This document shows positions 17,043-64,000 of a stretch of 64,000 bases of DNA, in pieces. Positions within the stretch are counted from its first letter, which is position 1. Each line of letters begins with the position of its first letter. The DNA comes from Hyphomicrobiales bacterium (GTDB lineage: Bacteria; Pseudomonadota; Alphaproteobacteria; Rhizobiales; JACESI01): the NCBI GenBank assembly GCA_039989895.1, contig JBDXGY010000006.1, positions 835,092-899,091 on the forward strand, written 5' to 3'. The notes under the pieces were generated by a model. It did no database searches, was not told the origin of the DNA, and saw only the letters and a program-made list of their open reading frames with translations. The position numbers and the translations under genes were made by a program.

Positions 17043-17086
17043 ATATCTGCAAAAAACACCTTCAAACAATCATAAAGTCAAAATTA

Positions 17087-17114
17087 AAGGCGGCCAATTC
17101 TGAGCCGCCTTTAA
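17087..17114. terminator. bidirectional terminator between hspQ and ialB
   Basis: Stem AAGGCGGC/GCCGCCTT with a 9-nt loop, flanked by A-rich and T-rich runs. Confidence 0.7.
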
Positions 17115-17151
17115 TTAAAAATCATCTTAAATGACTGCGTCATTAAAACGC

Positions 17152-17838
17152 TTATTCTGCTGCTTTTGCAGGCTCGGCAGCCGCACCTTCTTTATTCTCT
17201 TTTTCAAGAAGGTTTTTACGCGCTTCATCGGCCTTACGTTGCAAGCGGTCTTGCAATGTCTCTTGAGTTTTAGCAAGAGCCTTCGGATCAACTGCTGGCC
17301 CATCATAGGCCGCGGTGAAACCTGTTAATGTTATTGGGAACTCAGCCTGCTTGCCTGCTGGGTTGATGCCAATAATTTTCATCTCATTACCACGCTTCAA
17401 GTTTGAGATGAAACCCTTATCAAACCGAGCTTCAGCAAAGCACGCCTGTTGAGTACAGACCTGAAATTTAGCGGTTCCCGTTTTAGCTCCATCAATTTGA
17501 ATGCGCATACCAGGTTGAATCAAAAGTCCTGGTGGAAGGGCAAAACTAAACCCTTTCTGAGCTGCACCCGCCTGCTCTATAATACGAGCCTGAGCAACTA
17601 CGGCACCCTTCTCATTAGCCAAGCTGAAGTTCAAAGTACATAATTTTGCTTTTGATCGCGGATCAACTTCACAAATCTTATACCAGCTATTTGTATTTGA
17701 AATTGCGGAAGCAGCTTGCGGTGCAGCAGCTTGCGGTGCCGCAGGTTTTGTTTCCTGTGACAAAGCGCCAGATGTCAATAAGCCACAAACTGCGGTTGCG
17801 GCTATTAGTGTAGAAACAGGTCGAAAAAACATCTTCAT
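17152..17838 (-). CDS. ialB: invasion-associated locus B (IalB) family periplasmic protein
   Basis: Signal peptide, conserved Cys pairs (WYKICE...KLCTL, FQVCTQQACFAE) and the IalB-type domain pattern. 228 aa. Confidence 0.85.
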   Translation of the reverse strand: MKMFFRPVSTLIAATAVCGLLTSGALSQETKPAAPQAAAPQAASAISNTNSWYKICEVDPRSKAKLCTLNFSLANEKGAVVAQARIIEQAGAAQKGFSFALPPGLLIQPGMRIQIDGAKTGTAKFQVCTQQACFAEARFDKGFISNLKRGNEMKIIGINPAGKQAEFPITLTGFTAAYDGPAVDPKALAKTQETLQDRLQRKADEARKNLLEKENKEGAAAEPAKAAE

Positions 17839-18266
17839 AAAAACCTCAATATAGTTTTGATAGAGTAGTTAACTCCGTCTAAGCATGAAATGACTGTAGT
17901 TTCCATACCAATAAGGGAAGAAATGCGGCAATTATATACTTAGGCCAGAATTTGAATCAGCGTATATCGTGTACAACATCAAAAAATGGAAACCAAGTTT
18001 TCTGCCTTCTTAATTCCTGGTTATACGCAATTGTGATCACTTTATGAGTTATATATTCCCTAACAAAACCGATAGCAGTGCCTCAGTTTTCATTAAAATG
18101 AACCGATGCCAGTTTGATTCTAATAAAACCAGATGAATTCTAATAAACAAGGTGGAACACATTATGATTTTAAAGGAATATCTTTCCTAACAATGATTGT
18201 TCTGGTCAAATCCCAAAACATGATTCGCCAAATCAAAATTTTGATAATCATTAGGAACAATAAAAC

Positions 18267-40839: not shown

Positions 40840-41310
40840 ATGTCATCATCTGATCCAATTGACCACGATCTCATCCGCAAACTTGCTCAACTACTGTCTG
40901 ATACGGACTTAAATGAAATCGAGATAGAGCACGAAACATTGCGCTTGCGCCTATCCCGTAATCCGGCGCCTGTACAAACTGTGGTACAAGCAGCACCCCC
41001 TGTAGCAGCGCCTCAAGCAGTCGCCACAAGCGCCCCAGCAGAGATTGCAGCGCCTACACCTACAGCAGGATCAATGGAAGGTGCCCTCAGCTCGCCAATG
41101 GTTGGCACAGCTTATTTGTCAGCAGAACCTGGAAACCCGCCCTTTGTAAAAGTAGGCGATAGCGTAAAAGCAGGCCAAACGGTTCTCATTATTGAAGCCA
41201 TGAAGACGATGAATCAGATACCAGCCCAAAAAGACGGCAAAGTTACAGCTATCCTCATTGATGATGCCCAGCCAGTCGAATTCGGCGAACCACTCATCGT
41301 GATCGAATAA
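40840..41310 (+). CDS. accB: acetyl-CoA carboxylase biotin carboxyl carrier protein
   Basis: Ala/Pro linker and the biotinylation motif IEAMKTMN. Lies directly upstream of accC. Confidence 0.93.
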   Translation: MSSSDPIDHDLIRKLAQLLSDTDLNEIEIEHETLRLRLSRNPAPVQTVVQAAPPVAAPQAVATSAPAEIAAPTPTAGSMEGALSSPMVGTAYLSAEPGNPPFVKVGDSVKAGQTVLIIEAMKTMNQIPAQKDGKVTAILIDDAQPVEFGEPLIVIE

Positions 41311-41320
41311 GGAAAGCGGC

Positions 41321-42676
41321 GTGTTTAACAAGCTTCTGATTGCCAATCGCGGCGAAATCGCCCTTAGAGTCCTGCGTGCCTGTAAAGAACTTGGCATTAA
41401 AACCGTTGCCGCTCATTCCGCAGCTGATGCAAACGCAATGCATGTACGCCTTGCCGATGAGAGCGTGTGTATTGGTCCGCCTGCGGCCCGTGATTCTTAT
41501 TTGAAAATTCCGGAAATTCTGGCAGCCTGTGAAATCACTGGCGCCGATGCCGTACACCCTGGTTATGGCTTTTTATCAGAAAACGCCCGTTTTTCTGAAA
41601 TTTTAGCAGCTCACAACATCACCTTCGTTGGTCCCTCAGCAGAACACATCTCCATTATGGGAGATAAAATAACCGCGAAACAAACAGCCCAGCGATTAGG
41701 TATTCCGGTTGTTCCTGGCTCAGACGGTGCCATTAAAGATATTAAGACGGCTAAAAAAGTTGCCGCACAGATCGGTTATCCCGTTATTGTAAAGGCAGCA
41801 TCTGGTGGTGGCGGTCGCGGCATGAAAGTGGCAATGACCGAGGCTGATTTACCCGAAGCAGTCTCAACTGCAAAAACTGAATCAAAAGCAGCATTCGGTG
41901 ATGATGCCCTTTATCTCGAAAAATACCTCATTACCCCACGCCATATTGAAATTCAGGTATTTGGTGACGGCAAAGGCAATGCGATCCATTTAGGAGAACG
42001 CGATTGCTCCTTGCAAAGACGTCATCAAAAAGTATGGGAAGAAGCGTTATCCCCGACATTGAATGAAAATGAACGAGCAAAAATAGGTGATATTTGCGCT
42101 AAAGCCGTTGCTGAAATTGGTTATTCAGGCGCAGGTACGGTTGAATTTCTCTATGAAAATGGCGAGTTTTATTTCATTGAGATGAACACGCGCCTACAAG
42201 TTGAACACCCAATCACCGAGGCGGTCACAGGCGTTGATCTCGTTCACGAACAATTACGCATCGCGTCAGGTGGCTCTTTATCTGTGAAACAGGAAGACAT
42301 CGTGTTCACCGGCCACGCAATTGAATGCCGCATTAACGCCGAACATGCTAAAACTTTCGCGCCATCACCGGGAACGATTACTCAGTATCATCCGCCGGGC
42401 GGTTTCGGTGTGCGCGTTGATTCAGGTGTCTATCAGGGATATACAATTCCTCCCTACTACGACAGTTTGATCGGCAAATTGATTGTCCATGGCCGCAATC
42501 GTACTGACTGTTTGATGCGCCTACGCCGTGCCTTAGATGAATTTATCATTGATGGTGTAGAAACAACGATCCCCCTCTTCCACAATCTTCTGGCGGAACG
42601 GGATATTCAAGACGGTAATTATGATATTCACTGGCTTGAAAATTACCTCGCGAAAGACGATGCTTCGACATCTTGA
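41321..42676 (+). CDS. accC: acetyl-CoA carboxylase biotin carboxylase subunit
   Basis: LIANRGEIA, the ATP-grasp GGGGRGM motif and EMNTRLQVEHP. GTG start, 451 aa. Confidence 0.95.
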   Translation: MFNKLLIANRGEIALRVLRACKELGIKTVAAHSAADANAMHVRLADESVCIGPPAARDSYLKIPEILAACEITGADAVHPGYGFLSENARFSEILAAHNITFVGPSAEHISIMGDKITAKQTAQRLGIPVVPGSDGAIKDIKTAKKVAAQIGYPVIVKAASGGGGRGMKVAMTEADLPEAVSTAKTESKAAFGDDALYLEKYLITPRHIEIQVFGDGKGNAIHLGERDCSLQRRHQKVWEEALSPTLNENERAKIGDICAKAVAEIGYSGAGTVEFLYENGEFYFIEMNTRLQVEHPITEAVTGVDLVHEQLRIASGGSLSVKQEDIVFTGHAIECRINAEHAKTFAPSPGTITQYHPPGGFGVRVDSGVYQGYTIPPYYDSLIGKLIVHGRNRTDCLMRLRRALDEFIIDGVETTIPLFHNLLAERDIQDGNYDIHWLENYLAKDDASTS

Positions 42677-50672: not shown

Positions 50673-50722
50673 GTCTGGGTAAAGTCTGGGTAAAGTCTGG
50701 GGAAAGTCTGGGGAAAGTCTGG
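50673..50722. repeat. 11-bp tandem repeat, 4.5 copies, running into the CCA end of tRNA-Gly
   Basis: GTCTGGGTAAA x2, GTCTGGGGAAA x2, then GTCTGG. The TGG of that last partial unit (50720-50722) is the complement of the encoded CCA. Confidence 0.9.
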
Positions 50723-51999: not shown

Positions 52000-52116
52000 A
52001 TGAATAAAAAGAAATATACAAAGCCAACTTTGAATAAGAAAATCAACTTAACAAAAGTAGTTGCGGTACAAGCTTCACCGGTAGTAAGCGGCAAATTTTT
52101 TGGCACACTAGATTAA
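52000..52116 (+). CDS. small ORF, 38 aa: MNKKKYTKPTLNKKINLTKVVAVQASPVVSGKFFGTLD
   Basis: SD AAGGGGGA 5 nt upstream of the ATG, own terminator, and a paralog whose leader differs only by synonymous changes. It is below the ORF-track size cutoff. Confidence 0.6.
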   Translation: MNKKKYTKPTLNKKINLTKVVAVQASPVVSGKFFGTLD

Positions 52117-52146
52117 ATATCAAAATTGATATATTGAACTATAACA

Positions 52147-52178
52147 AGAACCCGCTTCATTGAAGCGGGTTCTTTTTT
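52147..52178 (+). terminator. rho-independent terminator of small ORF 1
   Basis: 12-bp stem AGAACCCGCTTC/GAAGCGGGTTCT followed by a T6 run. Confidence 0.85.
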
Positions 52179-52304
52179 GCAATTAACTTGGAAATTGAGC
52201 GAAATAAGAATAGAGCTATATTGGCAATACGTTAGGATATCAATATTTGACTGAATAGTAATTATATCTTACTCGTAGAAAACATCATTTTAAGGGGAGA
52301 AGTT

Positions 52305-52418: not shown

Positions 52419-52476
52419 CAAGCGGCGTATTTTTGAGTAGGATTAAATATCAAAATTGATATATTGAACTATAACA

Positions 52477-52508
52477 AGAACCCGCTTCATTGAAGCGGGT
52501 TCTTTTTT
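52477..52508 (+). terminator. rho-independent terminator of small ORF 2 (also faces the convergent 52548-53321 gene)
   Basis: Identical hairpin AGAACCCGCTTC/GAAGCGGGTTCT plus T6. Confidence 0.85.
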
Positions 52509-52547
52509 GCAATTAACTTGGAAATTGAGCGCAATAAAAATAGAGCT

Positions 52548-53321
52548 CTATTGGCAATACGTTAGGTTTTCGATCTTCACTGCTGCGTCTTTGCTCTCGC
52601 CAACGGTGCGCAAAGATCGTTTGCAATGCTCAAGCTCTTCCTCGCTCAAAACATAAAAAGGCCGAGGAAAATCCGTGATACCAATCAGCTTATCTGAAGG
52701 AACATCGACACCACTATCGCGAATTTCCTTCACATTGCGGATAATCGTCACGCCATTGCTCTCCTCTTTCACCACAACAGCGACCTGTATTGCCTTTTGC
52801 GATGAAGGGGCGCGCATCGCCAACTGCCCAGCAACATATGCTGGTATCGGCAGCACATCTATAAGCGACGAATGTGGCTTAGGGTTTGGCCATTTCTTAG
52901 CACTGGGACTGATGTTGATGAAATCATCTGAACGATGGGTATGCGTCAAATAACGGCCATGTTTATGATTCACCGCCCCTATTTTCTGGTGCCCGCCATG
53001 ATAGCCCTTCACAAAATGATCGTGCCGCTTGGTTTTAGGTTTTATAAGTTTAGCGCGCTTTGTTTTCACCTTATGAGAAGAAGCTGATCTTGCTTTGTCA
53101 TGTGAATGTACATGCGGCTTTTTGACGTATTTCCTTTTAGAAGACTTATGCCCACTCACCGTGCGCGTTTTGGTGACAGTTTCAGTCACAGTTTCAGTCG
53201 TCGTGACTGTTGTTGTTTTGGACTTAAAAACTTTATGGCCTGCAAGCGCTGCTTGCTGTGGGAAAGTAAAGGCAGCAAAGGCCAAAAGAAGGCCTGCGGC
53301 TGTATTCGATCGTTTCATCAT
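52548..53321 (-). CDS. secreted His/Lys-rich protein of unknown function
   Basis: Signal peptide MMKRSNTAAGLLLAFAAFTFPQQAALA, a TTVTTTETVTETVTKT low-complexity run and several His clusters (HVHSHDK, HDHFVKGYHGGHQK, HKHGRYLTHTHR). SD GGAGA. I recognise no family. Confidence 0.6.
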   Translation of the reverse strand: MMKRSNTAAGLLLAFAAFTFPQQAALAGHKVFKSKTTTVTTTETVTETVTKTRTVSGHKSSKRKYVKKPHVHSHDKARSASSHKVKTKRAKLIKPKTKRHDHFVKGYHGGHQKIGAVNHKHGRYLTHTHRSDDFINISPSAKKWPNPKPHSSLIDVLPIPAYVAGQLAMRAPSSQKAIQVAVVVKEESNGVTIIRNVKEIRDSGVDVPSDKLIGITDFPRPFYVLSEEELEHCKRSLRTVGESKDAAVKIENLTYCQ

Positions 53322-53578
53322 AGCTCGTTATCTCCGTACTATACAAAGGAGTAAAAAGCGCGCCGCATCAAGCCACCGCTCCCGGCGACCTACACTGTAA
53401 AAATATTAAAATCATTCCACTTTTAAATCAAGAGCTTATTCGTAACTGGTCGATAGTTGCGCGAAATCGCAGCTTTCTAAGCCCCCCTCCCTGCATCTCA
53501 TCATCTTTTTCCATTCTCTTTGCATAAGAACCCAATTTCAGCTTGATCTAGCTTATTCTTTTCTGTAGTCCGGTACGT

Positions 53579-53668
53579 GGAGACGTGGCCGAGTGGCTGA
53601 AGGCGCGCCCCTGCTAAGGGCGTATACGGGAGACCGTATCGAGGGTTCGAATCCCTTCGTCTCCGCCA
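53579..53668 (+). tRNA. tRNA-Ser (anticodon GCU)
   Basis: Acceptor GGAGACG/CGUCUCC, anticodon loop CUGCUAA, long variable arm (UACGG/CCGUA stem), T-loop UUCGAAU, encoded CCA. Confidence 0.92.
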
Positions 53669-53769
53669 CCTACCTTATTTCTCCTATTCAGCTCCAAAGC
53701 TATGGCATATTGCAAGGCTCGGTCGCTGCATCTTAAGCATAAGGCACCCAAAATCTGGAGGATAATGGC

Positions 53770-54684
53770 GTGAGCGTATTAGACCAAGCCATGAGAGACT
53801 GCGCGCAAGAAGGCATTGTCTTTGATCGCGCCCAGACAAATGGCATCACTATGTTTTATGCGCGCAAGGGCACAGGTTACCCGCTCGTCCTTCTCCATGG
53901 ATGGCCAGAATTCTGGATGGTCTATCGCCCCATAATCAATGCTCTGGCAGACGAATTTGATATTATTGTTCCTGATCTACGCGGATTTGGCGATACCGGA
54001 AAGGCCACATCCGGCCCTGATGATCAAGCCAATGCTGACGTGCATACTGAAGATATCAAAGGCCTCATAGACAATCTCGGCATTAAAAAATTTGGACTGG
54101 TTAGTGGTGACGTTGGAGCCAATATTGCGCAAGCTTTCGCCCGATCCTATCCAGAAAGCTTGTCAGGGCTCTTCTTCTTCTCGACACCCTACCCCGGTCT
54201 AGGAAAACGATACGCACAAGCCGACCACTTGACGGAAGTCTGGTACCAATACTTTCAGCAAATACCATTGGCTGTTGAATTGGCGGGCAGCTCAAGAGAC
54301 GCTTGCAAAATGTATATCTCACATTTTCTCAACCACTGGTCCAGCGATAATCCAGCAGTCTTTGAGCATTTGATCGAAATCTACACAGACAATTTCATGA
54401 AGAATGACAATCTTCAAGGCGGGTTTGATTGGTATTTAAGTTCTGCTAAAAACAGGCGGTTGTGGATTGAAGAGAAACTTCCCCACCCCCCCGTTATCAA
54501 TACCCCATCGCACTTTATGTGGGGCAAAAAAGACCCGCTGATCCGACCTGAGTGGAGCGATCGATTGAGCGAGTATTTTAATGATTACACCATCGAGTTT
54601 GTCGATGCTGGCCACTTTGTCCATGCCGAAATACCGGATAAGGCTGCGGCCAACATTAGAAAGTTCTTTAAAGACAAGGTATAG
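53770..54684 (+). CDS. alpha/beta-fold hydrolase, Asp-nucleophile type (epoxide hydrolase / haloacetate dehalogenase-like)
   Basis: HGWPEFW oxyanion motif and SGDVGA at the nucleophile elbow (Asp rather than Ser). GTG start with GGAGGA 7 nt upstream. Confidence 0.75.
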   Translation: MSVLDQAMRDCAQEGIVFDRAQTNGITMFYARKGTGYPLVLLHGWPEFWMVYRPIINALADEFDIIVPDLRGFGDTGKATSGPDDQANADVHTEDIKGLIDNLGIKKFGLVSGDVGANIAQAFARSYPESLSGLFFFSTPYPGLGKRYAQADHLTEVWYQYFQQIPLAVELAGSSRDACKMYISHFLNHWSSDNPAVFEHLIEIYTDNFMKNDNLQGGFDWYLSSAKNRRLWIEEKLPHPPVINTPSHFMWGKKDPLIRPEWSDRLSEYFNDYTIEFVDAGHFVHAEIPDKAAANIRKFFKDKV

Positions 54685-54723
54685 TGGCTAAGATCTCATA
54701 CTCACTTTTCGAGGAATAAAGAA

Positions 54724-55569
54724 TTGTCTTCTTCATTGCCCCCAAATCCTTGCATTCTTTGTTGTGCTATAACGGGTGCGGTACCCACACAGAAGGATAA
54801 TCCAGCCCTCCCCGTAACAATTGCCGAACAGATAGAAAGTTCACATGAAGCTGTGGAGGCAGGTGCGTCAATATTGCATTGTCATGTACGCGATGATGAA
54901 GGCAATCCGACATCTGACCCCGAGCGTTTTGCGGCCCTCAAAGAAGGCCTTGAGAAATATGTGCCCGGAGCGATCATTCAATTTTCAACCGGTGGGCGAA
55001 ATGGTGCAGGCCATGAGCGTGGTGCTATGTTATCACTTCGCCCTGATATGGCTTCTTTAACGGTAGGCTCCAACAACTTCCCAAATCGAGTTTACGAAAA
55101 CCCTCCTAATCTGGTTGAATGGCTCTCGGCAGAAATGCGTCAATATGAGGTTATGCCAGAGATCGAGGCCTTTGACCTGTCGCATATTATCAATGCCGTC
55201 AAAATGCACGCCAATGGCGCCATTAGCGGTAAACTTTATGTACAATTTGTCATGGGAATCAAGAACGCCATGCCCGTCGACAAACATGTGTTTGATTTCT
55301 ATGTTGAGACGATGAAACGCCTCGCGCCCGATGCCCCGTGGTGCGCTGCAGGCATTGGTCCTGGACAGGTTATTGTCAATGAATGGGCAATTGCGGCTGG
55401 CGGCCACACTAGAGCCGGTCTTGAGGATAATATACGTCTCAACAAAACAACCCTCGCTCCCTCCAATGCGGCTTTAATCAAAAGAGCAGCAGAGCTATGC
55501 GACAAATACGAGCGCCCCGTCGCAACAATAAGTGAAGCACGTAATATCCTTGGGCTACGCGCTGCATGA
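54724..55569 (+). CDS. beta-keto acid cleavage enzyme family protein (BKACE/DUF849, 3-keto-5-aminohexanoate cleavage enzyme-like)
   Basis: N-terminus CAITGAVPTQKDNPALPVTIAEQIESSHEAVEAGASILHCHVRDDEG is typical of the BKACE TIM barrel. 281 aa. TTG start with GAGGA 8 nt upstream. Confidence 0.75.
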   Translation: MSSSLPPNPCILCCAITGAVPTQKDNPALPVTIAEQIESSHEAVEAGASILHCHVRDDEGNPTSDPERFAALKEGLEKYVPGAIIQFSTGGRNGAGHERGAMLSLRPDMASLTVGSNNFPNRVYENPPNLVEWLSAEMRQYEVMPEIEAFDLSHIINAVKMHANGAISGKLYVQFVMGIKNAMPVDKHVFDFYVETMKRLAPDAPWCAAGIGPGQVIVNEWAIAAGGHTRAGLEDNIRLNKTTLAPSNAALIKRAAELCDKYERPVATISEARNILGLRAA

Positions 55570-55587
55570 CGAGGCGATAAAGATAAC

Positions 55588-56916
55588 TTAAGAGGCGATC
55601 ACCTCATTCTTCTGACCAACTAAAGCATCTTCAAACCATTTGGCTACTTGCAATAGTTGTACATCTCGCCTTGGGCGAGCAGCCAATTGTATGCCATATG
55701 AAAGCCCACTCGCATTCGTGCCACAGGGCACTGTGATACTCGGCAAGCCCAACAAGGTCCACGCTCTGCTCATCACAGGATCGCCCGTGCCTGCTTGCGA
55801 CAATGGCGCCACATCTGGAGCACTTGGCAAAACAAGCACATCCGCATCACCAAAAATCTGTTCAAGATTATGCAGGCAGTAATCGCGCAGCTGATAAGCA
55901 TCATCATAATCACTGCTTACGGTTCCATCGGCCAATGCAAACAATTCATGGAGTGACATGCTTAGTTTGTCATAGGCCGTATAGCGTTCATGTGAAAGTT
56001 CACGCGCAGCCTCGACAGCCATGATAATCGTTTGCGCTTCACACAGCTGAGTGAAAGGATCAGGCACAGTGTCTCGCCCAACATGCGCGCCTTTTTCGAC
56101 AATCAATTGAAGTGTTTTTTCAATTGCAAGATTGGCGCCTTTTGAGGCCTTATCCCATTCTGGACCCATCCATAATCTGACATTGGGTTCTTCTTTGATT
56201 GGTGCGATACAAGCAAGGTCAGGACGATTTGCCATAACACTGGCGATTAAAGCTATATCCGATACGCATCGACCAAACATACCAACAGTATCCAATCCAT
56301 TCGCCAGCGCTTTAACACCCGCCAGACTGATCATACCACGGGTTGGTTTGTAACCGACAATACCGCAATAAGCGGCAGGACGAATGGTGGAAGCCGCTGT
56401 CTGCGACCCAATGGCAAGTGGCACCATATAATCACTAACGGCTGCGGCGGAGCCGCTGGACGAGCCTCCGGGCGAACGCGCTGCATCATTTGGGTGCTTC
56501 GTTTTACCCGCTTGCCAATAAGCAAATTCGGTCGAAACCGATTTACCCATTATAATCGCCCCTGCTGCACGAAGACGACTAACGCAGGCTGCATCAGCTA
56601 CTGGTCGGAATCCAGCATAGATTTTGGAGCCATAACTTGTTGGCATATCAAATGTATCAAAAATATCTTTGATAGAAACGGGCAAGCCCCAAAGCAATCC
56701 CCTCTTCTCAATTGGCTGTTGCGAGAGAGTTGATAGCTGGCGCTCAACATTAAGCCAATCAAGGTGCTGCCATGCTTCAACATCGTCTTCTCTATTCTCA
56801 ATGCGTTCACGACAAGAAGACACGAGTACGTCAGGCGTCAATTCGCCAGAAATCAGCAAACTTCGTGCGTGTGTTGCTGTTAATTCATTAAAAGTATTAT
56901 AGACTGAACCAAACAA
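55588..56916 (-). CDS. amidase-signature (AS) family amidase
   Basis: GGSSSGSAAAV signature with the upstream catalytic Lys context (PVSIKDIF). 442 aa. Confidence 0.85.
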   Translation of the reverse strand: MFGSVYNTFNELTATHARSLLISGELTPDVLVSSCRERIENREDDVEAWQHLDWLNVERQLSTLSQQPIEKRGLLWGLPVSIKDIFDTFDMPTSYGSKIYAGFRPVADAACVSRLRAAGAIIMGKSVSTEFAYWQAGKTKHPNDAARSPGGSSSGSAAAVSDYMVPLAIGSQTAASTIRPAAYCGIVGYKPTRGMISLAGVKALANGLDTVGMFGRCVSDIALIASVMANRPDLACIAPIKEEPNVRLWMGPEWDKASKGANLAIEKTLQLIVEKGAHVGRDTVPDPFTQLCEAQTIIMAVEAARELSHERYTAYDKLSMSLHELFALADGTVSSDYDDAYQLRDYCLHNLEQIFGDADVLVLPSAPDVAPLSQAGTGDPVMSRAWTLLGLPSITVPCGTNASGLSYGIQLAARPRRDVQLLQVAKWFEDALVGQKNEVIAS

Positions 56917-56970
56917 ATAATAATTTCTACCTATATTAAATTTGCTAGCTTTCTAATTAAAACCGCAATT

Positions 56971-57008
56971 ATTATGAGCAAATGCAACCATTATGAGCAA
57001 ATGCAACC
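56971..57008. repeat. perfect 19-bp tandem direct repeat in the divergent amidase/TAXI promoter region
   Basis: ATTATGAGCAAATGCAACC at 56971-56989 and again at 56990-57008, followed by a degenerate third copy containing GCAAATGAG. Confidence 0.85.
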
Positions 57009-57319
57009 TATTACATTGCAAGCAAATGAGCCCATTTCAAATAAGTAAGCTTTCATTTGACGATGTCACTGTCAACATGCTCTTATATAAAAAACCACAC
57101 CGTACTCCCATTTAAGTAAGCGCTTAATTACGGTTTTAAAAAACAAAAGAAATTTAAAAAATTTAAGCTTGTTACAAAAGGAAATTAAAAATTTAGGGCT
57201 TGTAAATTGGATTTAAAAACAATGGTATGTCCTAATAGTATGGAGGCATGATTTAGCGATACATTTTGAATGTTGTTGAATTAGCTTCTTCACAAAAAAA
57301 AGCGCAGGGAGTACACAGA

Positions 57320-58408
57320 ATGAAACTATTAAGAAAATACAAGAAAACAGCGACGTTAGCTGTTGCAGCCGTTGCTTTAGCCGCAGCCGGAGCAGGCAGC
57401 GTTCAATATTCAAAGGCGGCTGACGCTATCGCCGTTCTTCTATGTCCATTTGGCTGTGGTCCAATTGCTGGTGACACCATCTTAATGAACCAGATGATCA
57501 AAGAAGGTTCAGATGTGTTGCTGCTTCCGCAGGAAACACCAGGTTACATGTACAACATCAGAGAGATGGGCCGTGAAGAGCGCAAATGGAAAACATCCGT
57601 TTTTGCCACTGAAGACACTCTCATCCAAATCGCCTATTCAGGTGGTTCTGACGAAGTTAAAGAATTTCTCCCTGAGCCAGTACAGGTCCCGTGGAAGCTT
57701 CTTTATGGTGAAGCATGGTGGGGCCAAGGCAAATTCCTTGTGACCTTCGATTGTAACTTGAAGTCAATGGCTGATTTGAAAGGCAAGCGTATCTCGCTCG
57801 GTCTGCGCGGTCAGTCTGATTGGGGCGTATTCTCACGCTTGTTCTTAGAGCATGCATTTGGTGTAACACCAGATAATGCAGATATTCGCCACATGACTCC
57901 AGGGCAGCTAACACAGCAGCTCATTGATGGTGCAACTGATGCAGCTGTCACACCAATCGGTGCGGAGCCAAGTCTTGAAACATTCATCATACCTGGTCCT
58001 GTTCGTCAGCTTGAAGCAACCGGTAATAAGATGTGTTACCTCGGCGTGACGGAAGAAGACGTAGCAAAGGTGAATGAAAAATTCGGCACAAGTTGGTTCC
58101 ATGTGAATCTACCAGCTGGAACACTTCCTCACCAAGATGAGCCTCTTGGTATTGGATTTAACCGCGCCTTTAAGGCCGCTCATGAAAGTTTCGATGAAGA
58201 GCGCGCTTACAACTTTGTAAAATCGGTCGGTAAAATTGGGCCTAAAATGAAAGAACTTCATGCCCTATGGAAAATCTGGTCACCAGAACTGATGACATGT
58301 GGTTTGTCAGAAGAGAACACGCATGCTGGTGCAATCAGAGCCTACAAAGAGCTGGGTTGGTGGGACAAACGCAAAGAGTGCGAACCAATGACTTACCCTA
58401 AGAGCTAA
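57320..58408 (+). CDS. TAXI-family TRAP transporter solute-binding protein
   Basis: Signal peptide MKLLRKYKKTATLAVAAVALAAAGAG and an NMT1/TAXI-like periplasmic fold pattern. It lies directly upstream of a fused TRAP permease. ATG at 57320 with AGGGAG 8 nt upstream. Confidence 0.7.
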   Translation: MKLLRKYKKTATLAVAAVALAAAGAGSVQYSKAADAIAVLLCPFGCGPIAGDTILMNQMIKEGSDVLLLPQETPGYMYNIREMGREERKWKTSVFATEDTLIQIAYSGGSDEVKEFLPEPVQVPWKLLYGEAWWGQGKFLVTFDCNLKSMADLKGKRISLGLRGQSDWGVFSRLFLEHAFGVTPDNADIRHMTPGQLTQQLIDGATDAAVTPIGAEPSLETFIIPGPVRQLEATGNKMCYLGVTEEDVAKVNEKFGTSWFHVNLPAGTLPHQDEPLGIGFNRAFKAAHESFDEERAYNFVKSVGKIGPKMKELHALWKIWSPELMTCGLSEENTHAGAIRAYKELGWWDKRKECEPMTYPKS

Positions 58409-58537
58409 CTTACTGAACACATAAACGAAATGGCCGATCCAGTTGAAAATTAAACGATTGGGTCGGCTATTAATGTGCGACAATTCGTCACATGAATTAA
58501 ACACAAGAACGATACATACCTAAAATAAGGACTTAAG

Positions 58538-60493
58538 ATGACTGGCTGGAAAACCCTCAGGCAACTGGTTGATATACCATTCATATTAGTTGGCCTTGTG
58601 CTCACCGTATACATTGGGTTTTCAGCTTTTGGATATGTAAAAAACTCATCAGAACATTATTCAAATTTCATCCTTGGCACGTGCCTGATGACCGGTTTTC
58701 TCGCCCTTCGCAATTTGTGCGACGAAAAACTGGGCATGAAAGACATTATGAGCGATACGGGCGACACTATGCGCGTGCGCCCTTTCTTTTGGCCACGGTT
58801 TAGCCTGGCGGTTTTCGCGCTCATAATAAGTGCCATTGCGATGGGATACATTCGCTATCACGCCGTCTACCTTGAAAAAGCCCAACCCTATTTTGCTGAT
58901 ATAGATATTGTTGTCGGCTGGATGATGACCGTGTCAATTCTAGCGCTGTGCTACATCCACTGGGGTTTACTCCTGACATCTGTGATCGCAGTCGCGATCA
59001 GCTATTTCTTCTTCGGTTATCTGATTGAAAATCCGCTTTTCGTAACCCCAAAATATGACACCGGATTCATCATGAATTACATTGGTCTTGGGACCAACCA
59101 AGGCTTTTACTATCTCGCTCAAGTTGCAGCAGATTCGATCTATTTCTTGATCATTTATGCCGCCATTCTTTTAGGCGTTGGCATGCTTGATATGATCCTT
59201 GAAGTCGGCAAAGTAACAGGACGCCGCATGGCTGGTGGTGCTGCTGGACCAGCACTCATTGGCTCAGGCATTGTATCTTCAATTATGGGGCAAGCTGTCT
59301 CAAACGTTGTGCTGACAGGTCGATTGACCATCCCGATGATGAAACGTTATGGCTATTCAAACTCTATGGCAGGTGCGATTGAAGCAACAGCTTCTACTGC
59401 AGGACAGATCATGCCCCCAATCATGGGTTTGGCTGCATTCATTATCGCCTCATTCTTGAACCGCCCCTACATCGACGTTGCACTTTCTGCCATGGTGCCG
59501 GGCCTTTTATATTTAGTGGGTTGCGGCATCGCGATCTATATCTATGCAAAACGTCACAAACTACCAAAGCTGACGGAAAAAGCCGATATGCAAATGATCT
59601 TGCGTCTTTTGCCGACATTCATTATTTCCTTCGGTATTGTTCTGTGGCTTTTGCTTGGCTATCGCTCACCGGCAATTGCAGGAATGTGGGGTATTATCCT
59701 TGCTCTCGCCTTGTCATTTTTTCAAGGAAAATGGCAACCCAAATTGTCAACGCTCTATGCGGCTCTTCAAGAAGGCTTCTACCTTGTGGCGGTGCTCTCA
59801 CTGCTATTGATTGCCATTGGCCCGCTCGGTCAGGTAATGTTGACGACTAACCTCTCCGGACGGTTAGGTGCAGCGCTGATCCAATATTTGCCAGATAGCC
59901 AACTACTCTTGTTGATTGGTGCCATGTGCGTATCGCTGGTTCTGGGTATGGGACTACCAACACCGGTGGCCTATATCATTGTAGCGCTTGCTCTCGTACC
60001 CTTCATGCAACAGATCGGCGTTCCGCCGCTACAAGCCCATTTCTTCGTCTTCTATTTTGCCGTATTCTCAACATTGACGCCTCCTGTGGCCGTCAGCGTG
60101 TTGGCGGCGGCCAAACTCGCGGACGCCTCATTCCTGAGAACTGCTGCGGATTCATTGAAAATCGCCTCAACAACTTTCATCATTCCATTTGCATTTGTTT
60201 TTTCACCTGAACTGATGACATTTCCGAATATGACAACAGCGATCATCCCTCCTTTGCTGGAAGTTCTCGGAATCCAGATCACAATGTCGATTGCATCTTA
60301 TGGGTACTTTTTCAGGGCTTTGAGCGGATGGGAACGTATTGTATTCTTAGCCACAGCTGTCTTCGGATTTTTGTATATGACCTTGGCATATGATTTTTAC
60401 CTCTACGCCTCGCTCTCATTATTTGGTGCGATGACTCTATGGGTATTAAAGAGTTACTTGTCTGAAAAATTCATGGGAAACACGCCTCAATAA
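58538..60493 (+). CDS. TRAP transporter fused 4TM/12TM permease (TAXI-type)
   Basis: 651 aa, highly hydrophobic with many predicted transmembrane helices. The size and position match the fused permease of TAXI-TRAP systems. Confidence 0.8.
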   Translation: MTGWKTLRQLVDIPFILVGLVLTVYIGFSAFGYVKNSSEHYSNFILGTCLMTGFLALRNLCDEKLGMKDIMSDTGDTMRVRPFFWPRFSLAVFALIISAIAMGYIRYHAVYLEKAQPYFADIDIVVGWMMTVSILALCYIHWGLLLTSVIAVAISYFFFGYLIENPLFVTPKYDTGFIMNYIGLGTNQGFYYLAQVAADSIYFLIIYAAILLGVGMLDMILEVGKVTGRRMAGGAAGPALIGSGIVSSIMGQAVSNVVLTGRLTIPMMKRYGYSNSMAGAIEATASTAGQIMPPIMGLAAFIIASFLNRPYIDVALSAMVPGLLYLVGCGIAIYIYAKRHKLPKLTEKADMQMILRLLPTFIISFGIVLWLLLGYRSPAIAGMWGIILALALSFFQGKWQPKLSTLYAALQEGFYLVAVLSLLLIAIGPLGQVMLTTNLSGRLGAALIQYLPDSQLLLLIGAMCVSLVLGMGLPTPVAYIIVALALVPFMQQIGVPPLQAHFFVFYFAVFSTLTPPVAVSVLAAAKLADASFLRTAADSLKIASTTFIIPFAFVFSPELMTFPNMTTAIIPPLLEVLGIQITMSIASYGYFFRALSGWERIVFLATAVFGFLYMTLAYDFYLYASLSLFGAMTLWVLKSYLSEKFMGNTPQ

Positions 60494-60520
60494 AAAGCAA
60501 CCTAGCCGTGGGAGAGGATC

Positions 60521-60997
60521 ATATCGTTATCGTTTAAGGAAGTTGCCGAAATACTCAAGATTATTGACGCATCAAACTGCGATGAAGTCGTTCTTGAACT
60601 GGAAGGCATAAAACTGGCTGTGCGTCGCGATACGTCTCATAGCCAAGGGGAATCGCGCAGCCTAGAAACGCCAGTGACTGAGCTAACGCAGACTGCCGCA
60701 CCCTCAGCACCTCAAACTGGCAAGAAAGCACCCACGGCTGAAGCAAGCACAGCTTCGGGGGTTCCCGTGCGCTCGCCTATGGTTGGATCCTTTTATCGTC
60801 GCCCTGCCCCAGACAAGCCTCCCTTCGTTGAAATCGGCTCAAAAGTAAAACAAGGTGATACGCTGTGTTTGATTGACGTTATGAAACTTTATACGACAAT
60901 CACAGCGACACACGCTGGTACTATCAATGAGATAGCCGCTGATGATGGCGATCTCGTCGAATTTGACCAACTGTTATTTGTCATATCTGCGGATTAG
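60521..60997 (+). CDS. biotin carboxyl carrier protein (second, accessory copy); start codon unresolved
   Basis: Biotinyl-lysine motif (LIDVMKLY). The in-frame region upstream of the track's GTG (60620) encodes a typical BCCP N-terminus (SFKEVAEILKIIDASNCDEVVLELEGIKLAV). No ATG, GTG or TTG occurs between the in-frame stop at 60503 and 60620. Confidence 0.8.
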   Translation: MSLSFKEVAEILKIIDASNCDEVVLELEGIKLAVRRDTSHSQGESRSLETPVTELTQTAAPSAPQTGKKAPTAEASTASGVPVRSPMVGSFYRRPAPDKPPFVEIGSKVKQGDTLCLIDVMKLYTTITATHAGTINEIAADDGDLVEFDQLLFVISAD

Positions 60998-61000
60998 ACG

Positions 61001-62374
61001 ATGAACCAATCGCATCGCGTTTTGATTGCAAACAGAGGAGAAATCGCGGTTCGCGCTGCGAAAGCTTGTCGTGCAATTGGATTGGAGAGCGTTGCAGTAT
61101 ACTCCACTGCTGATCGTTCTTCACCTCATGTGTGGCTTGCTGATAAAGCTGTTTGTATTGGCCCGCCTGCGAGCACTAAGAGCTATCTCAATGTGGATGC
61201 CTTGCTCCATGTGGCCAAGCAAACGGGATGTACGATGCTCTATCCCGGTTATGGATTTCTTGCTGAAAACGCGGCCTTTGCCGAACAGTGCGCCGAAGAA
61301 GAGTTGGTCTTCATCGGGCCGTCACCAGAAACAATCACAACTATGGGCGATAAAGCGCGCGCGAGAGACATGGCAAAGAAATTTAACGTGCCGATCGTAC
61401 CTGGATCAAAAGGCGCTTTTACCGATAGCAAAATAGCATTGAAAGAGGCAAAAAAAATCGGCTTTCCCTTGTTGTTGAAAGCAAGTTCAGGTGGCGGCGG
61501 TCGCGGGATGCGGGTCGCAGAAGACTTGACAACATTCAAAACAAAATTCGATGAAGCCTCACAAGAAGCACGCGAAGCTTTTGGTGACCCTTCAGTCTAC
61601 CTTGAACGGTATTTCTCCGCTGTGCGCCATCTTGAGGTACAGATATTCGGTGACAACCATGGATTAGTGCGCCATTTAGGCGAACGGGATTGCACGACAC
61701 AAAGACGCCACCAGAAACTGGTTGAAGAAAGCCCTTCTCCTGTTCTAACCGACAAGGAGCGAAACAGCCTGTTAGACGCTGCTGTACGTTTAGCAAAAGG
61801 CGTTGGCTATCTTGGCGCAGGCACCGTGGAATTTATATTCGATGAAGTATCACGTGAATTCTATTTCATAGAGATGAATACCCGCATTCAGGTCGAACAT
61901 CCGGTGACAGAAATGCGCATCGGCCACGACTTGATTGAAGAACAACTCCGTGTGGCACTCGGTGGGCCTCTTTCTATACCTGAAGAGAAAGACTGGTCCA
62001 GCAATCATGTGATGGAGTTTCGTATCAATGCGGAGAACCCTGATCAAGGCTTTGTCCCTTCCCCCGGTCGCATCACACGGCTACGGTTTCCAACAACGCC
62101 AGATGTGCGTTGCGATAGTTTCATCTATGAAGGCGCCACCATCCAGCCGTTTTACGATTCGATGATCGCAAAGTTAATTGTTACAGGAACTGACAGACAG
62201 GACGCTTTGAAAAATACGCGCAGAGCACTCGATGAACTTATCATTGACGGTATCCACACAACACGAAGTTTTCATCGCAATTTGCTTGATGATCCAGATT
62301 TTATTGGAGCGAAAATCCATACCCGCTGGGTAGAAAATACTTTCATTGATCGCTTAGATGCGCAGAGGATTTGA
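61001..62374 (+). CDS. biotin carboxylase subunit (second, accessory copy)
   Basis: LIANRGEIA, GGGGRGM and EMNTRIQVEHP motifs. 457 aa, starting 3 nt after the BCCP stop. Confidence 0.92.
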   Translation: MNQSHRVLIANRGEIAVRAAKACRAIGLESVAVYSTADRSSPHVWLADKAVCIGPPASTKSYLNVDALLHVAKQTGCTMLYPGYGFLAENAAFAEQCAEEELVFIGPSPETITTMGDKARARDMAKKFNVPIVPGSKGAFTDSKIALKEAKKIGFPLLLKASSGGGGRGMRVAEDLTTFKTKFDEASQEAREAFGDPSVYLERYFSAVRHLEVQIFGDNHGLVRHLGERDCTTQRRHQKLVEESPSPVLTDKERNSLLDAAVRLAKGVGYLGAGTVEFIFDEVSREFYFIEMNTRIQVEHPVTEMRIGHDLIEEQLRVALGGPLSIPEEKDWSSNHVMEFRINAENPDQGFVPSPGRITRLRFPTTPDVRCDSFIYEGATIQPFYDSMIAKLIVTGTDRQDALKNTRRALDELIIDGIHTTRSFHRNLLDDPDFIGAKIHTRWVENTFIDRLDAQRI

Positions 62375-62375
62375 C

Positions 62376-63851
62376 ATGCCAAAAAACAGCACCTCAAGCA
62401 CCATCGAAAAAAGAAAAGTCCGGCTCATTGATGTAACCCTGCGCGATGCTCATCAATGCTTGTGGGCAACCCGCATGACAACCGCGATGATGAAAGATAT
62501 TGCCCCTCGTCTAGACAATGCCGGTTTTGAGGCCATTGATCTTGTAGGTGGTGCCGTCTTTGATGTCATGGTGCGCTACCTGCGCGAAGACCCGTGGGAG
62601 CGGATGCGCATCTTAAATAAATGGATCACAAAAACGCCTTTGATTATTCATACGCGCGGGCAGAGTTTGTTTACCTTCGAATTTTTTGCTGACGACGTAG
62701 TTGAGCTCGCTGCCGAACGTTTTGCCGCAAACGGTATGACATACCACACCCCCTATGACGCCTTAAACGACATACGCAATCTGGGAATTCCGATCAAGGT
62801 TGCAAAGAAACATGGTCTTTATGTTGTGGGAGGGCTTGCCTATACCTATAGCCCTGTTCACACCGACGAATATTACGTTCGCAAGGCCAAAGAGCTTGTT
62901 GCCCATGGTGTTGATGCTGTGTTTGTGAAGGACGCAAGTGGACTTTTGCGACCTGAGCGCGTTGCAACGCTTTTTCCTGCGCTCAAAAAAGCAATCAAAA
63001 ACTTGCCGCTTCAAATCCACACCCACTGCAATTCTGGCCTTGCTCCTTATGTCACCTTACAAGCTGTGGAACATGGTGCCGAAGTAGTCCACACTGCCAC
63101 ATCAACACTCGCAAATGGTGTTTCTCATACGCCTACGGGACTTTTCACCAAGAACTGCCGCCGTCGAGGGTATGACGTTGATATTGATCTGGCTCCCATT
63201 GATGAGGTTGCGGAACGATTGGCTTATATTGCTGAGATGGAAGACAAGCCGGTGGGTACACCAAATCAATATGACGAATTCCATTTCCACCATCAATGCG
63301 CTGGCGGTATGGTGTCAAATCTTCAGTATCAACTGGAGACTATCGGTATTGAAGACAGACTAGAAGAAATTTTGGAAGAAGCAGGTCGGGTGCGCATGGA
63401 TTTAGGCTATCCAATCGTGATCAGCCCCTTCGCGCAATATATAATCACCATGGCAATCCTCAATGTTATGGGCAAGGATCAAGGCAAACCGCGTTACGAA
63501 ACTGTCCCTGATGAAGTACGACGCTATGTGCTTGGTGGATATGGCGAGATCGCAGGAAAAATTGACGGGACGCTCTACGACAAAATCACACGTGGAGCAC
63601 AACCCATCACACAGCGCCCCGGTGAACTTGTCCCACCAGCCTTGAAGCGTCTTCGTAAGGAGCGCGGCCCCTTCGCAAGCGACGACGATCTATTGCTCGC
63701 CGCATTTTATGATGACACTCAATACCAAGCCTTAAAAGCAGCCGGCCCCATTGAGACTGAATATCCCATCATGACGACACCGCTTTTGACGCTCATTAAA
63801 GAACTCAGCAATAGATCTCACATCAAGAGTTTTCATTTTTCAAAAAACTGA
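62376..63851 (+). CDS. pyruvate-carboxylase/oxaloacetate-decarboxylase-type carboxyltransferase subunit lacking a biotinyl domain
   Basis: HMGL-like TIM-barrel motifs: LIDVTLRDAHQ, the carbamyl-Lys context VKDASGLL and the metal ligands HTHCNSG. It ends without an xMKM biotinyl domain. ATG at 62376 with GAGGA 6 nt upstream. Confidence 0.85.
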   Translation: MPKNSTSSTIEKRKVRLIDVTLRDAHQCLWATRMTTAMMKDIAPRLDNAGFEAIDLVGGAVFDVMVRYLREDPWERMRILNKWITKTPLIIHTRGQSLFTFEFFADDVVELAAERFAANGMTYHTPYDALNDIRNLGIPIKVAKKHGLYVVGGLAYTYSPVHTDEYYVRKAKELVAHGVDAVFVKDASGLLRPERVATLFPALKKAIKNLPLQIHTHCNSGLAPYVTLQAVEHGAEVVHTATSTLANGVSHTPTGLFTKNCRRRGYDVDIDLAPIDEVAERLAYIAEMEDKPVGTPNQYDEFHFHHQCAGGMVSNLQYQLETIGIEDRLEEILEEAGRVRMDLGYPIVISPFAQYIITMAILNVMGKDQGKPRYETVPDEVRRYVLGGYGEIAGKIDGTLYDKITRGAQPITQRPGELVPPALKRLRKERGPFASDDDLLLAAFYDDTQYQALKAAGPIETEYPIMTTPLLTLIKELSNRSHIKSFHFSKN

Positions 63852-63959
63852 GACGATGACAGCCACATCATCATTTGCTGCATACAATGAATTCTGAATT
63901 ATGATAAAATACTTGGCTCATATTATCCAAAAAGGAATTATCATTGCCGCACAAAGCAC

Positions 63960-64000
63960 TGGCAGGGGCACACAGACTCGAACTGTGGACCTACGGTTTT
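63960..64000 (-). tRNA. tRNA, 3' part only (cut by window edge), most consistent with tRNA-Trp (CCA)
   Basis: The reverse complement reads ...AAAACCGUAGGUC-CACAG-UUCGAGU-CUGUG-UGCCCCU-G-CCA. The T-arm, acceptor 3' strand, discriminator G and the loop-end/stem context AAAACCG resemble E. coli tRNA-Trp as I recall it. The anticodon itself lies outside the window. Confidence 0.55.

Follow-up and report, generated by a model that had tools for sequence, protein, structure and literature searches.

Gene content of the tRNA-bounded block

The locus analyzed here lies at the right end of a 64,000-nucleotide stretch of a Hyphomicrobiales contig (JBDXGY010000006.1; the whole stretch is referred to as the window) and consists of a block of genes between a tRNA-Ser(GCU) gene and a tRNA-Trp(CCA) gene (Table 1). 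A sequence-only reading of this DNA had described two tRNA genes, with their 3' ends pointing inward, that bracket exactly eight genes: an alpha/beta hydrolase (ABH), an enzyme of the BKACE family, an amidase, the two components of a TAXI-TRAP importer, and a biotin-dependent carboxylase split into a biotin carboxyl carrier protein (BCCP), a biotin carboxylase (BC) and a carboxyltransferase (CT). Eight intact open reading frames (ORFs) of these families fill the interval, and the boundaries are borne out by ARAGORN and Rfam and, for the clipped tRNA-Trp, by comparison with two related contigs: its 41-nt fragment comprises the T-arm and the acceptor 3' strand ending in CCA and is 100% identical to the complete tRNA-Trp(CCA) genes in contigs L081 (12296-12371) and L087 (4099-4174). 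From the comparisons described below, we tentatively interpret the block as an accessory, long-resident catabolic cluster in a variable tRNA-Ser/tRNA-Trp slot, in which a carboxylase may act ahead of BKACE, with levulinate as the lead substrate.

Table 1. Features of the block and of its boundaries (window positions)
Feature	Position	Strand	Evidence
tRNA-Ser(GCU), left boundary	53579..53668	+	ARAGORN; Rfam tRNA 57.4 bits; 3' end toward block
14-nt 3' core of tRNA-Ser, CTTCGTCTCCGCCA, candidate att core	53655..53668	+	blastn and alignment with contig L081; homology begins exactly here
ABH, epoxide-hydrolase / haloalkane-dehalogenase type	53770..54684	+	Pfam Abhydrolase_1; Asp nucleophile GDVGA, HGWP
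BKACE, 3CHV/3FA5-like subgroup	54724..55569	+	PF05853 301 bits; NF053568 462 bits
Amidase-signature amidase, malonamidase E2-like	55588..56916	-	PF01425 239 bits
Putative divergent control region between amidase and transporter genes	56917..57319	.	Tandem Repeats Finder
Probable TAXI-family periplasmic solute-binding protein	57320..58408 (longest ORF from 57266)	+	Pfam NMT1_3; 362-aa gene call on L081
Fused TRAP permease (DctQ-DctM type)	58688..60493 (longest ORF from 58538)	+	TIGR02123; Pfam DctM; 601-aa gene call on L081
Stand-alone BCCP	60518..60997	+	Biotin_lipoyl domain, VMKL motif; TIGR00531 104 bits
BC (ATP-grasp)	61001..62374	+	Pfam three-domain architecture; NF006367 619 bits
CT, pyruvate carboxylase beta / OadA / 5S type	62358..63851 (alternative start 62376)	+	HMGL-like and PYC_OADA domains
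tRNA-Trp(CCA), 3' 41 nt, clipped by window end	63960..64000	-	Direct read; 3' end toward block

All eight genes are under purifying selection, with dN/dS values of 0.02-0.23 against two sibling contigs and no stop codons; the values for BCCP (60518-60997) are 0.16-0.23. The BC and BCCP of the block are 50% and 42% identical, respectively, to the products of the housekeeping accB-accC genes of the same window (40840-42676, with AccC at 41321-42676). The best solved relatives of ABH are epoxide hydrolases (8hgu, 262 bits; isobutylene epoxide hydrolase; 1ehy). The amidase carries the amidase signature with the motifs of the Ser-cisSer-Lys triad, and its best solved relative is malonamidase E2, matched over the full length with GGSSSGS and S-x-IRPAA kept; this match (230 bits) is far from identity, and no equivalog model is passed. 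The TAXI protein is recognized by NMT1_3 (70 bits, cut-off 27), scores below the cut-off of TIGR02122 (TRAP_TAXI, 77.5 versus 84.35 bits) and has weak matches only among the solved TAXI proteins. The adjacent fused permease passes TIGR02123 (TRAP_fused, 350 bits, cut-off 320.65).

Conservation of the carboxylase cluster

Relatives of the CT were collected from one genome per species, and the best 80 of 418 pattern-level relatives, which are 70-91% identical to the window CT, were examined as loci (L numbers designate individual loci and contigs). The CT thus defines a tight family. Its members include Alphaproteobacteria (Anderseniella, Hyphomicrobiaceae, Methyloligellaceae, Afifella, Hyphomicrobium, Acidocella, Roseovarius and Rhodospirillales) and Gammaproteobacteria (Arenicellales and Halofilum). 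The ORFs of these loci were called and clustered, the window proteins were mapped onto them, and the features at a distance of up to 8 kb from the CT were counted in the 53 well-flanked loci, i.e. those with about 10 kb on both sides of the CT (Table 2).

Table 2. Genes found near the CT in the 53 well-flanked loci
Gene	Loci
BCCP	47/53
BC	42/53
Any BKACE	40/53
BKACE of the CT-linked orthogroup, directly 3' of CT	34/53
BKACE subfamily BK_a	8/53
BKACE subfamily BK_b	5/53
Short-chain dehydrogenase/reductase (SDR) type B	34/53
Fused TRAP permease	30/53
TAXI binding protein	27/53
IclR regulator	25/53
LarA-like protein	11/53
Amidase	9/53
LcdH-like dehydrogenase	9/53
TauE-like protein	8/53
BDH-like SDR type A	5/53
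ABH homolog	4/53

Comparison of these loci revealed several features of the cluster: (i) BC, CT and BKACE genes are adjacent in 34 of the 53 well-flanked loci, (ii) six loci combine genes for amidase, TAXI, TRAP, BCCP, BC, CT and BKACE, and (iii) an ABH is additionally present in two of these six (L001 and L004), which makes at least two other genomes with all eight families of the window block. The gene set is not a chance juxtaposition. BC, BCCP, CT, BKACE, SDR and IclR constitute its firm core, and the other genes form an optional periphery; the sequence-only reading, which had proposed a functional set that might instead turn out to be scattered in other genomes, is in this respect upheld. 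Among the peripheral genes, TAXI homologs that are 71-84% identical to the window protein adjoin CT clusters elsewhere, and ABH homologs (47-48% identity) adjoin the amidase in L001, L004, L005, L016 and L017.

The window version of the cluster deviates from this pattern. Neither its gene order nor its type of BKACE is matched in the 80 loci, and it lacks the SDR and the IclR regulator that normally accompany the cluster. The lack of regulator, dehydrogenase, CoA-transferase and integrase genes had been pointed out before, and the ORF and family scans find none of these among the block ORFs; for the regulator and the dehydrogenase this proves to be a peculiarity of the lineage, as IclR and SDR are usual elsewhere.

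Several further observations concern individual loci. Two of them (L006, 5058-6449, and L008, 5033-6478) encode a second CT paralog, 40% identical, that lies beside a LarA-like gene just upstream of BCCP-BC-CT, which suggests that several carboxyltransferases of the pyruvate carboxylase type share one BC/BCCP pair. In the Arenicellales loci (L056-L080), LarA, LarB, LarC and LarE genes are found upstream of BC-CT-BKACE, and a conserved series of genes follows downstream (approximately 11400-18200), whose products are a GST, a family III CoA-transferase, an enzyme resembling L-carnitine dehydrogenase (400 bits, slightly short of the cut-off), an ADP-forming acyl-CoA synthetase and an enoyl-CoA hydratase. 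The LarA-like neighbor was considered as a clue to the substrate and discarded: it scores 218 bits with the 'LarAH14/15/16' model, for which the cut-off is 740, and the characterized LarAH15 is a gluconate epimerase. The additional neighbors in minimal loci have no consistent theme, and include by eye a sulfatase, a GMC oxidoreductase, an LLM monooxygenase and MFS transporters. A record titled Leptospira interrogans strain LS0056 (L032) contains a proteobacterial-type BC-CT-BCCP cluster with a 77% identical CT and is probably a contamination or a mis-assigned contig.

Carboxyltransferase, BKACE and the predicted pathway

The CT consists of a PF00682 domain (54 bits) followed by PF02436 (105 bits), and it passes the NF006761 model 'pyruvate carboxylase subunit B' (426 bits, cut-off 402). 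Its nearest solved relatives are PycB (5ks8, 289 bits), OadA (269 bits) and 5S (257 bits), and in the alignment with 5ks8, 2nx9 and 1rqb the metal ligands and catalytic motifs (RD, HQ, RGQ, KD, HxH and GGM-SN) are kept. Forty-six positions that are invariant in PycB, OadA and 5S are replaced in at least 90% of 64 members of the family, and many of these substitutions fall within motifs of the active site (HQS to HQC, WGGAT to VGGAV, QMLLRGQNLLGYRHY to IIHTRGQSLFTFEFF, and KDMA to KDAS). The Biotin_lipoyl (BCCP) domain is absent from the 497-aa CT. These replacements, the unfused BCCP and the catalytic context set the CT apart as a distinct subfamily, which very probably acts on a different substrate. 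The block carboxylase resembles the two-subunit (alpha4beta4) PycA/PycB enzyme of Methylobacillus flagellatus (5KS8), OadA and 5S in the type of its BC subunit, the DRE-TIM and PYC_OADA fold, the metal ligands and the catalytic motifs. It differs in that BCCP forms the C-terminus of the CT in PycB and OadA, whereas here it is a separate protein and the 46 invariant residues are replaced. Moreover, unlike PycA/PycB, genes of the block type sit in an inducible-looking catabolic cluster with BKACE, SDR and a transporter.

The window BKACE matches PF05853 over positions 1-274 of 274, contains the Zn-ligand motifs HCHVRD and GLEDN, and scores 455 bits against PDB 3chv. It is a full-length match above the cut-off (350 bits) of NF053568, the model for the 3-oxoadipate:acetyl-CoA acetyltransferase of Cupriavidus necator, and shares the HxH and E residues with this enzyme and with 3CHV, 3FA5 and 3NO5; the CT-linked BKACEs score 431-459 bits with the same model, and in all these cases the activity is a predicted one. 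The window protein is approximately 52% identical to the CT-linked orthogroup, within which identity is 63-87%, and BKACEs of its 3CHV type occur in none of the 80 CT loci. Its nearest counterparts in other lineages (78-81% identical) stand alone in a conserved mutS - histidine kinase - BKACE - comM context, whereas the window enzyme is embedded in a carboxylase cluster. The wider context of the stand-alone genes in L083, L084, L091 and L092 comprises asd, mutS, an acetyltransferase, a hybrid histidine kinase, BKACE, comM, an adenylate/guanylate cyclase, mrp and hemY. Most simply, the dedicated CT-linked BKACE would have been replaced in this lineage by a copy of the general one. Functional replacement is compatible with the data because both kinds of BKACE pass NF053568. 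The CT-linked BKACEs have an extra Arg-His (GRHQ) where the 3-oxoadipate type has PGQ.

In the pathway that we tentatively favor, the TAXI-TRAP importer would bring in a small organic acid, and the malonamidase-like amidase and the epoxide-hydrolase-like ABH would trim precursors. In most other genomes, the SDR would oxidize a hydroxy acid to the keto acid. BC, BCCP and CT, with its presumably remodelled pocket, would then use ATP and bicarbonate to carboxylate the carbon beside the keto group, yielding a beta-keto dicarboxylate, and BKACE would use acetyl-CoA to transfer the acyl part to CoA, releasing acyl-CoA and acetoacetate, so that neither a separate CoA ligase nor a thiolase is needed. 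The window lineage, in which the usual CT-linked BKACE, SDR and IclR are missing, would rely on its copy of the general 3-oxoadipate-type BKACE instead. We infer both the order of the steps and the identity of the substrate. The linear route through SDR, carboxylase and BKACE is the most economical reading of the conserved trio; to this extent the earlier proposal that a carboxylase acts ahead of BKACE stands, and its weak point is that the window BKACE is not the CT-linked ortholog.

The lead substrate is levulinate (4-oxopentanoate), which would be carboxylated to 3-oxoadipate and then cleaved to succinyl-CoA and acetoacetate. Should the BKACE act as annotated, levulinate would be the only chemically reasonable carboxylation precursor of 3-oxoadipate, because only the carbon next to the ketone would be carboxylated. 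This reaction would be the reversal of the spontaneous decarboxylation of 3-oxoadipate and a biotin-dependent analogue of acetone carboxylation. Three further observations are in keeping with levulinate and 3-oxoadipate. The best family match of the cluster IclR, below the cut-off, is to the beta-ketoadipate regulators PcaR/PcaU. In ten loci there are BDH-like SDRs with the substitution W187Y/F, and W187 is reportedly one of the two positions altered to make 3-hydroxybutyrate dehydrogenase act on levulinate. Levulinate also arises from beta-ketoadipate by abiotic decarboxylation, and the only bacterial route known for its use is the lva pathway (PMC10482344).

Each of the families involved is known, and their combination matches no pathway that we found: pyruvate carboxylase, acetone carboxylase, urea amidolyase, the carnitine and deoxyribonate modules and PcaIJF all differ from it. 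The sequence-only reading had likewise known of no characterized pathway with this gene set. Full-text literature searches found no description of the cluster, although an earlier mention in work on the BKACE family is possible. Among the known systems, the combination of an SDR with a BKACE is an established catabolic motif, and the carnitine (LcdH and BKACE) and deoxyribonate (lactonase, SDR and BKACE) modules group hydrolase, dehydrogenase, transporter and BKACE genes as the block cluster does, yielding acyl-CoA and acetoacetate (PMC6365646). These modules start from beta-hydroxy acids and have no carboxylase, whereas in the present cluster the ATP-dependent carboxylase is the most conserved member. 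With acetone carboxylase the cluster would share its logic, in that an ATP-driven carboxylation beside a ketone renders an inert compound cleavable. That enzyme does not depend on biotin and has no sequence relationship to the block carboxylase; its product passes to a CoA-transferase and a thiolase, whereas the product of the block enzyme would go to BKACE. Urea amidolyase (urea carboxylase and allophanate hydrolase) likewise combines a biotin carboxylase with an amidase-signature enzyme, and malonamidase E2, the best relative of the block amidase, acts on malonamate, which would be isosteric with allophanate. We rejected this analogy: the CT is of the HMGL-like/PYC_OADA type and not of the KipA/KipI type, and the amidase is present in only 9 of the 53 loci.

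A number of observations weigh against the favored pathway. In the window, BKACE is located 6.8 kb upstream of the CT in a separate two-gene unit with ABH, and, not being the CT-linked ortholog, it is less closely tied to the carboxylase here than elsewhere. A BKACE is missing from the surroundings of the CT in approximately one quarter of the well-flanked loci. CT orthologs that are nearly identical lie beside three different BKACE subfamilies, as would be expected equally if these had a product (acetoacetate) or a substrate in common. The LarA-like racemases in 11 loci, and neighbors of the Ldh_2 or haloacid-dehalogenase-like type noticed by eye in a few loci, hint at 2-hydroxy acids. The CT retains the Arg/Gln/Arg residues that presumably hold pyruvate in pyruvate carboxylase, and a 2-oxo acid is a possible substrate. 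The levulinate scheme assigns no role to the amidase. We know of no indication that levulinate is an abundant natural substrate.

Alternative explanations of the carboxylase range from a housekeeping role to other keto acids. An ordinary anaplerotic pyruvate carboxylase in three polypeptides, with neighbors that are unrelated or loosely co-regulated, is of low probability. All of the closest solved relatives of the CT are pyruvate or oxaloacetate enzymes, the 'pyruvate carboxylase subunit B' model is passed, and the catalytic and metal-binding residues are kept, but such an enzyme would account neither for the family-wide replacement of 46 invariant positions, many of them within active-site motifs, nor for the missing fused BCCP domain, the inducible catabolic architecture (IclR, transporter and SDR) or the adjacency of BKACE across two proteobacterial classes. 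Similarly improbable is an acetoacetate hub, in which BKACEs and BDH-like dehydrogenases would produce acetoacetate, the CT would carboxylate it to 3-oxoglutarate, and BKACE would cleave the latter to malonyl-CoA and acetoacetate. CT orthologs at least 73% identical to the window CT are found beside BKACEs of three subfamilies (in the 53 loci, the CT-linked one 34 times, BK_a 8 times and BK_b 5 times), all but two of these 53 loci (51) encode a BKACE, SDR or LcdH-like dehydrogenase in the vicinity, and a true 3-hydroxybutyrate-dehydrogenase-like SDR is present in ten loci. Yet the sum of these reactions would only spend ATP to turn acetyl-CoA into malonyl-CoA, and on balance no acetoacetate would be consumed; the loci conserve no enzyme that would process 3-oxoglutarate further, and the common SDR of type B lacks every 3-hydroxybutyrate-binding residue and is generic GolD/DthD-like. 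A 3-hydroxybutyrate dehydrogenase as the universal partner of the CT was rejected for a related reason, as the two kinds of SDR are distinct and only about ten SDR sequences are BDH-like.

Two other schemes keep a 2-oxo acid as the substrate. A 2-hydroxy acid such as lactate could be oxidized to pyruvate and the pyruvate carboxylated to oxaloacetate, which BKACE could cleave with acetyl-CoA to oxalyl-CoA and acetoacetate, in parallel to the Burkholderia ObcA/ObcB system, which synthesizes oxalate from oxaloacetate and acetyl-CoA. The pyruvate-binding residues of the CT would agree with this scheme, as would the homologs of LarA-type 2-hydroxy-acid racemases with their LarBCE partners in 11 loci, the Ldh_2-type and 2-haloacid-dehalogenase-like neighbors mentioned above, the family III CoA-transferases (relatives of oxalate/formyl-CoA transferases) that follow BKACE in Arenicellales, and the additional Arg-His of the CT-linked BKACEs. 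We nevertheless regard it as very unlikely: both BKACE groups score as the 3-oxoadipate enzyme, the family-wide CT replacements speak against plain pyruvate, no oxalyl-CoA-handling enzymes (Oxc) were seen in the loci, and the physiological benefit is unclear. The sequence-only reading had offered as a concrete option a 2-oxoglutarate carboxylase fed by a TAXI importer of 2-oxoglutarate or dicarboxylates, which we hold to be more improbable still. Known 2-oxoglutarate carboxylase (CfiAB) is a relative of pyruvate carboxylase, some TAXI systems carry 2-oxoglutarate, and the malonamidase-like amidase could serve as an omega-amidase on 2-oxoglutaramate. However, oxalosuccinate would be a poor BKACE substrate, its cleavage giving oxalyl-CoA and acetylsuccinate, both BKACE types score as the 3-oxoadipate enzyme, the known enzyme has its CT fused to BCCP, which is separate here, and the block contains no isocitrate dehydrogenase partner.

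In its strongest form, the carboxylase-then-BKACE proposal would make BC, BCCP and CT a new class of biotin-dependent carboxylase acting on a keto acid other than a 2-oxo acid, most plausibly converting levulinate to 3-oxoadipate. Together with BKACE it would constitute a two-enzyme, one-ATP route leading from a methyl-keto acid to succinyl-CoA and acetoacetate that is widespread in marine and soil Proteobacteria and distinct from lva. We consider this strong form unlikely. If true, a CT of the pyruvate carboxylase type retuned to another keto acid would add a CO2-fixing reaction to the few known substrate classes of biotin carboxylases and would give BKACEs a natural role downstream of a carboxylase; BKACEs are already in use in synthetic CO2-fixation cycles (PMC11961710). 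It would also explain a cluster that hundreds of genomes of Alpha- and Gammaproteobacteria currently carry under the label 'pyruvate carboxylase subunit B'. With levulinate as the substrate, the route would be a second and much shorter levulinate pathway, recycling a spontaneous breakdown product of beta-ketoadipate. Such a route, proposed here from sequence comparison, would be of interest to enzymologists and pathway designers.

The tRNA-Ser/tRNA-Trp slot

Sibling contigs, reached via BKACE and RlmB searches, belong to the same species-level group as the window (97-98% nucleotide identity), and the block is present in all three recovered metagenome-assembled genome (MAG) contigs, L081, L082 and L085; it appears to be fixed in the lineage. 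A look-up with the exact sequence of the window CT gave no hit. The left flank of L085 is the same as that of the window. In L081, the homology with the window begins precisely at the last 14 nt of tRNA-Ser, and the sequence left of this core (1-1989) encodes a P4-type tyrosine integrase of 396 aa (Arm-DNA-bind_3, Phage_int_M and Phage_integrase domains) and a charged 214-aa protein. An integrative element seems to occupy tRNA-Ser in the L081 strain and not in the window or L085. Because the integrase joins at the 14-nt core, the 3' end of tRNA-Ser would be a live integration site in the population. As the integrase DNA lies on the other side of the core, outside the block, the block itself is not shown to be mobile. 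Beyond tRNA-Trp, L081 encodes a PG_binding/CHAP protein followed by a TPMT-type methyltransferase. Immediately at the CCA end of tRNA-Trp, L081 (approximately 12270-12300) has a 17-bp unit (ACGCACAAAGCACTGG...) duplicated in tandem, of which the window (63940-63962) contains one copy.

A relative represented by L086/L087 (RlmB 75% identical) keeps both outer flanks: rlmB, a gene for a secreted repeat protein and tRNA-Ser on the left, and tRNA-Trp, the CHAP protein and the TPMT methyltransferase on the right. Between tRNA-Trp and the CHAP gene (L087, 4209-9431), it has none of the eight block genes and instead encodes two RoxA-like di-haem cytochromes and a catalase, so that presence of the block between these tRNAs, a comparison that had been suggested, does differ between relatives. 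Because L087 keeps the flanks and holds other cargo, the slot is variable, and it provides a small, clear case of metabolic cargo swapping between related lineages. In both lineages the cargo adjoins the 3' end of tRNA-Trp. The two tRNA genes are adjacent and divergent in L087 (3670-4174), as compared with window positions 53532-53668 and 63960-64000. Each of them, with about 47 bp of its own 5' flank, is inverted in place relative to the window, with the outer flanks in the same orientation. A single inversion is insufficient for this arrangement, which is equivalent to a circular permutation opened at the 3' end of tRNA-Ser. RlmB relatives at 64-66% identity have unrelated neighborhoods and are uninformative on the slot.

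The composition of the block is native. Its GC content is 0.480 versus 0.471 in the rest of the window and its GC3 is 0.456 versus 0.423, the codon-usage distance does not separate the two (Mann-Whitney p = 0.37), and no atypical composition or codon usage was found for the block against the rest of the window, contrary to what a foreign origin had led one to look for. Second copies of the tRNA-Ser or tRNA-Trp 3' ends are absent from the window, L081 and L087 (searched with up to 3 mismatches and by repeat finding), and the window contains no integrase gene, in agreement with the earlier statement that neither an integrase nor an att duplication is visible. The idea of an islet acquired at a tRNA is therefore supported in part: the slot is variable (L087) and an integrase lies at the tRNA-Ser core (L081), but composition is native, att repeats are lacking and all three recovered siblings carry the block. 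Native composition, the lack of an att duplication and purifying selection together indicate an old, domesticated accessory block and not a fresh island. Like tRNA-linked islands with P4-type integrases, it is located at tRNA 3' ends, with variable cargo and a sibling integrase at the tRNA-Ser core; unlike them, it has no integrase or att repeat, is native in composition and is apparently fixed in its lineage.

Alternatively, the block may be ancestral core DNA that L087 lost by a local rearrangement of the tRNA pair, which we regard as somewhat unlikely. This would account for the GC, GC3 and codon usage shared with the rest of the window, for the lack of att repeats and for the presence of the block in all three siblings; furthermore, the L087 locus is clearly rearranged, with both tRNAs inverted, and the homologous cluster is not tRNA-linked in 60 other genomes. 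It fits less well with L087, whose slot holds a different cargo and not a simple deletion, with the cargo at the tRNA-Trp 3' end in both lineages, with the P4-type integrase joined to the tRNA-Ser 3' core in L081, and with a gene order and a BKACE type that set the block apart from the 80 loci.

Some features of the locus concern gene starts and intergenic regions. According to the gene calls on the 97%-identical L081, the likeliest starts are 57320 for TAXI, 58688 for the permease and 62376 for the CT. Translation and sibling alignment show that the N-terminal region conserved in BCCP (SFKEVAEILKIIDASNCDEVVLELEGIKLAV) is encoded upstream of the first canonical start, GTG at 60620, and downstream of an in-frame TAG at 60503; translation probably starts at ATC 60518 or ATA 60521, and L081 has TTG at the corresponding site. 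The amidase-TAXI gap contains tandem repeats of 19 bp (2.2 copies, 56970-57013) and 31 bp (2 copies, 57143-57203), detected with Tandem Repeats Finder and assigned to repeat families D1 and D9. These repeats might serve as operators, but no regulator is encoded in the block. Promoter and terminator scans gave background level only, and the Rfam scans found nothing but tRNAs above the gathering thresholds.

Other elements lie to the left of the block. An 11-bp unit (GTCTGGGGAAA) in 4.5 copies (50673-50722) touches the 3' end of tRNA-Gly(UCC). Two copies of a structured element of about 100 nt (52082-52180 and 52431-52510, 349 bp apart), with weak Rfam matches (ncr1015, Leu/Thr leaders) far under the gathering scores, are located between rlmB and the gene for the secreted repeat protein, and the alignment of the window with L085 is interrupted in this region. 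The secreted protein itself (257 aa, 52548-53321, minus strand) contains a TVTTTETVTETVTKTRTV-type repeat and a His/Lys-rich stretch and has no family match; its gene also adjoins tRNA-Ser in L087, at 70% nucleotide identity.

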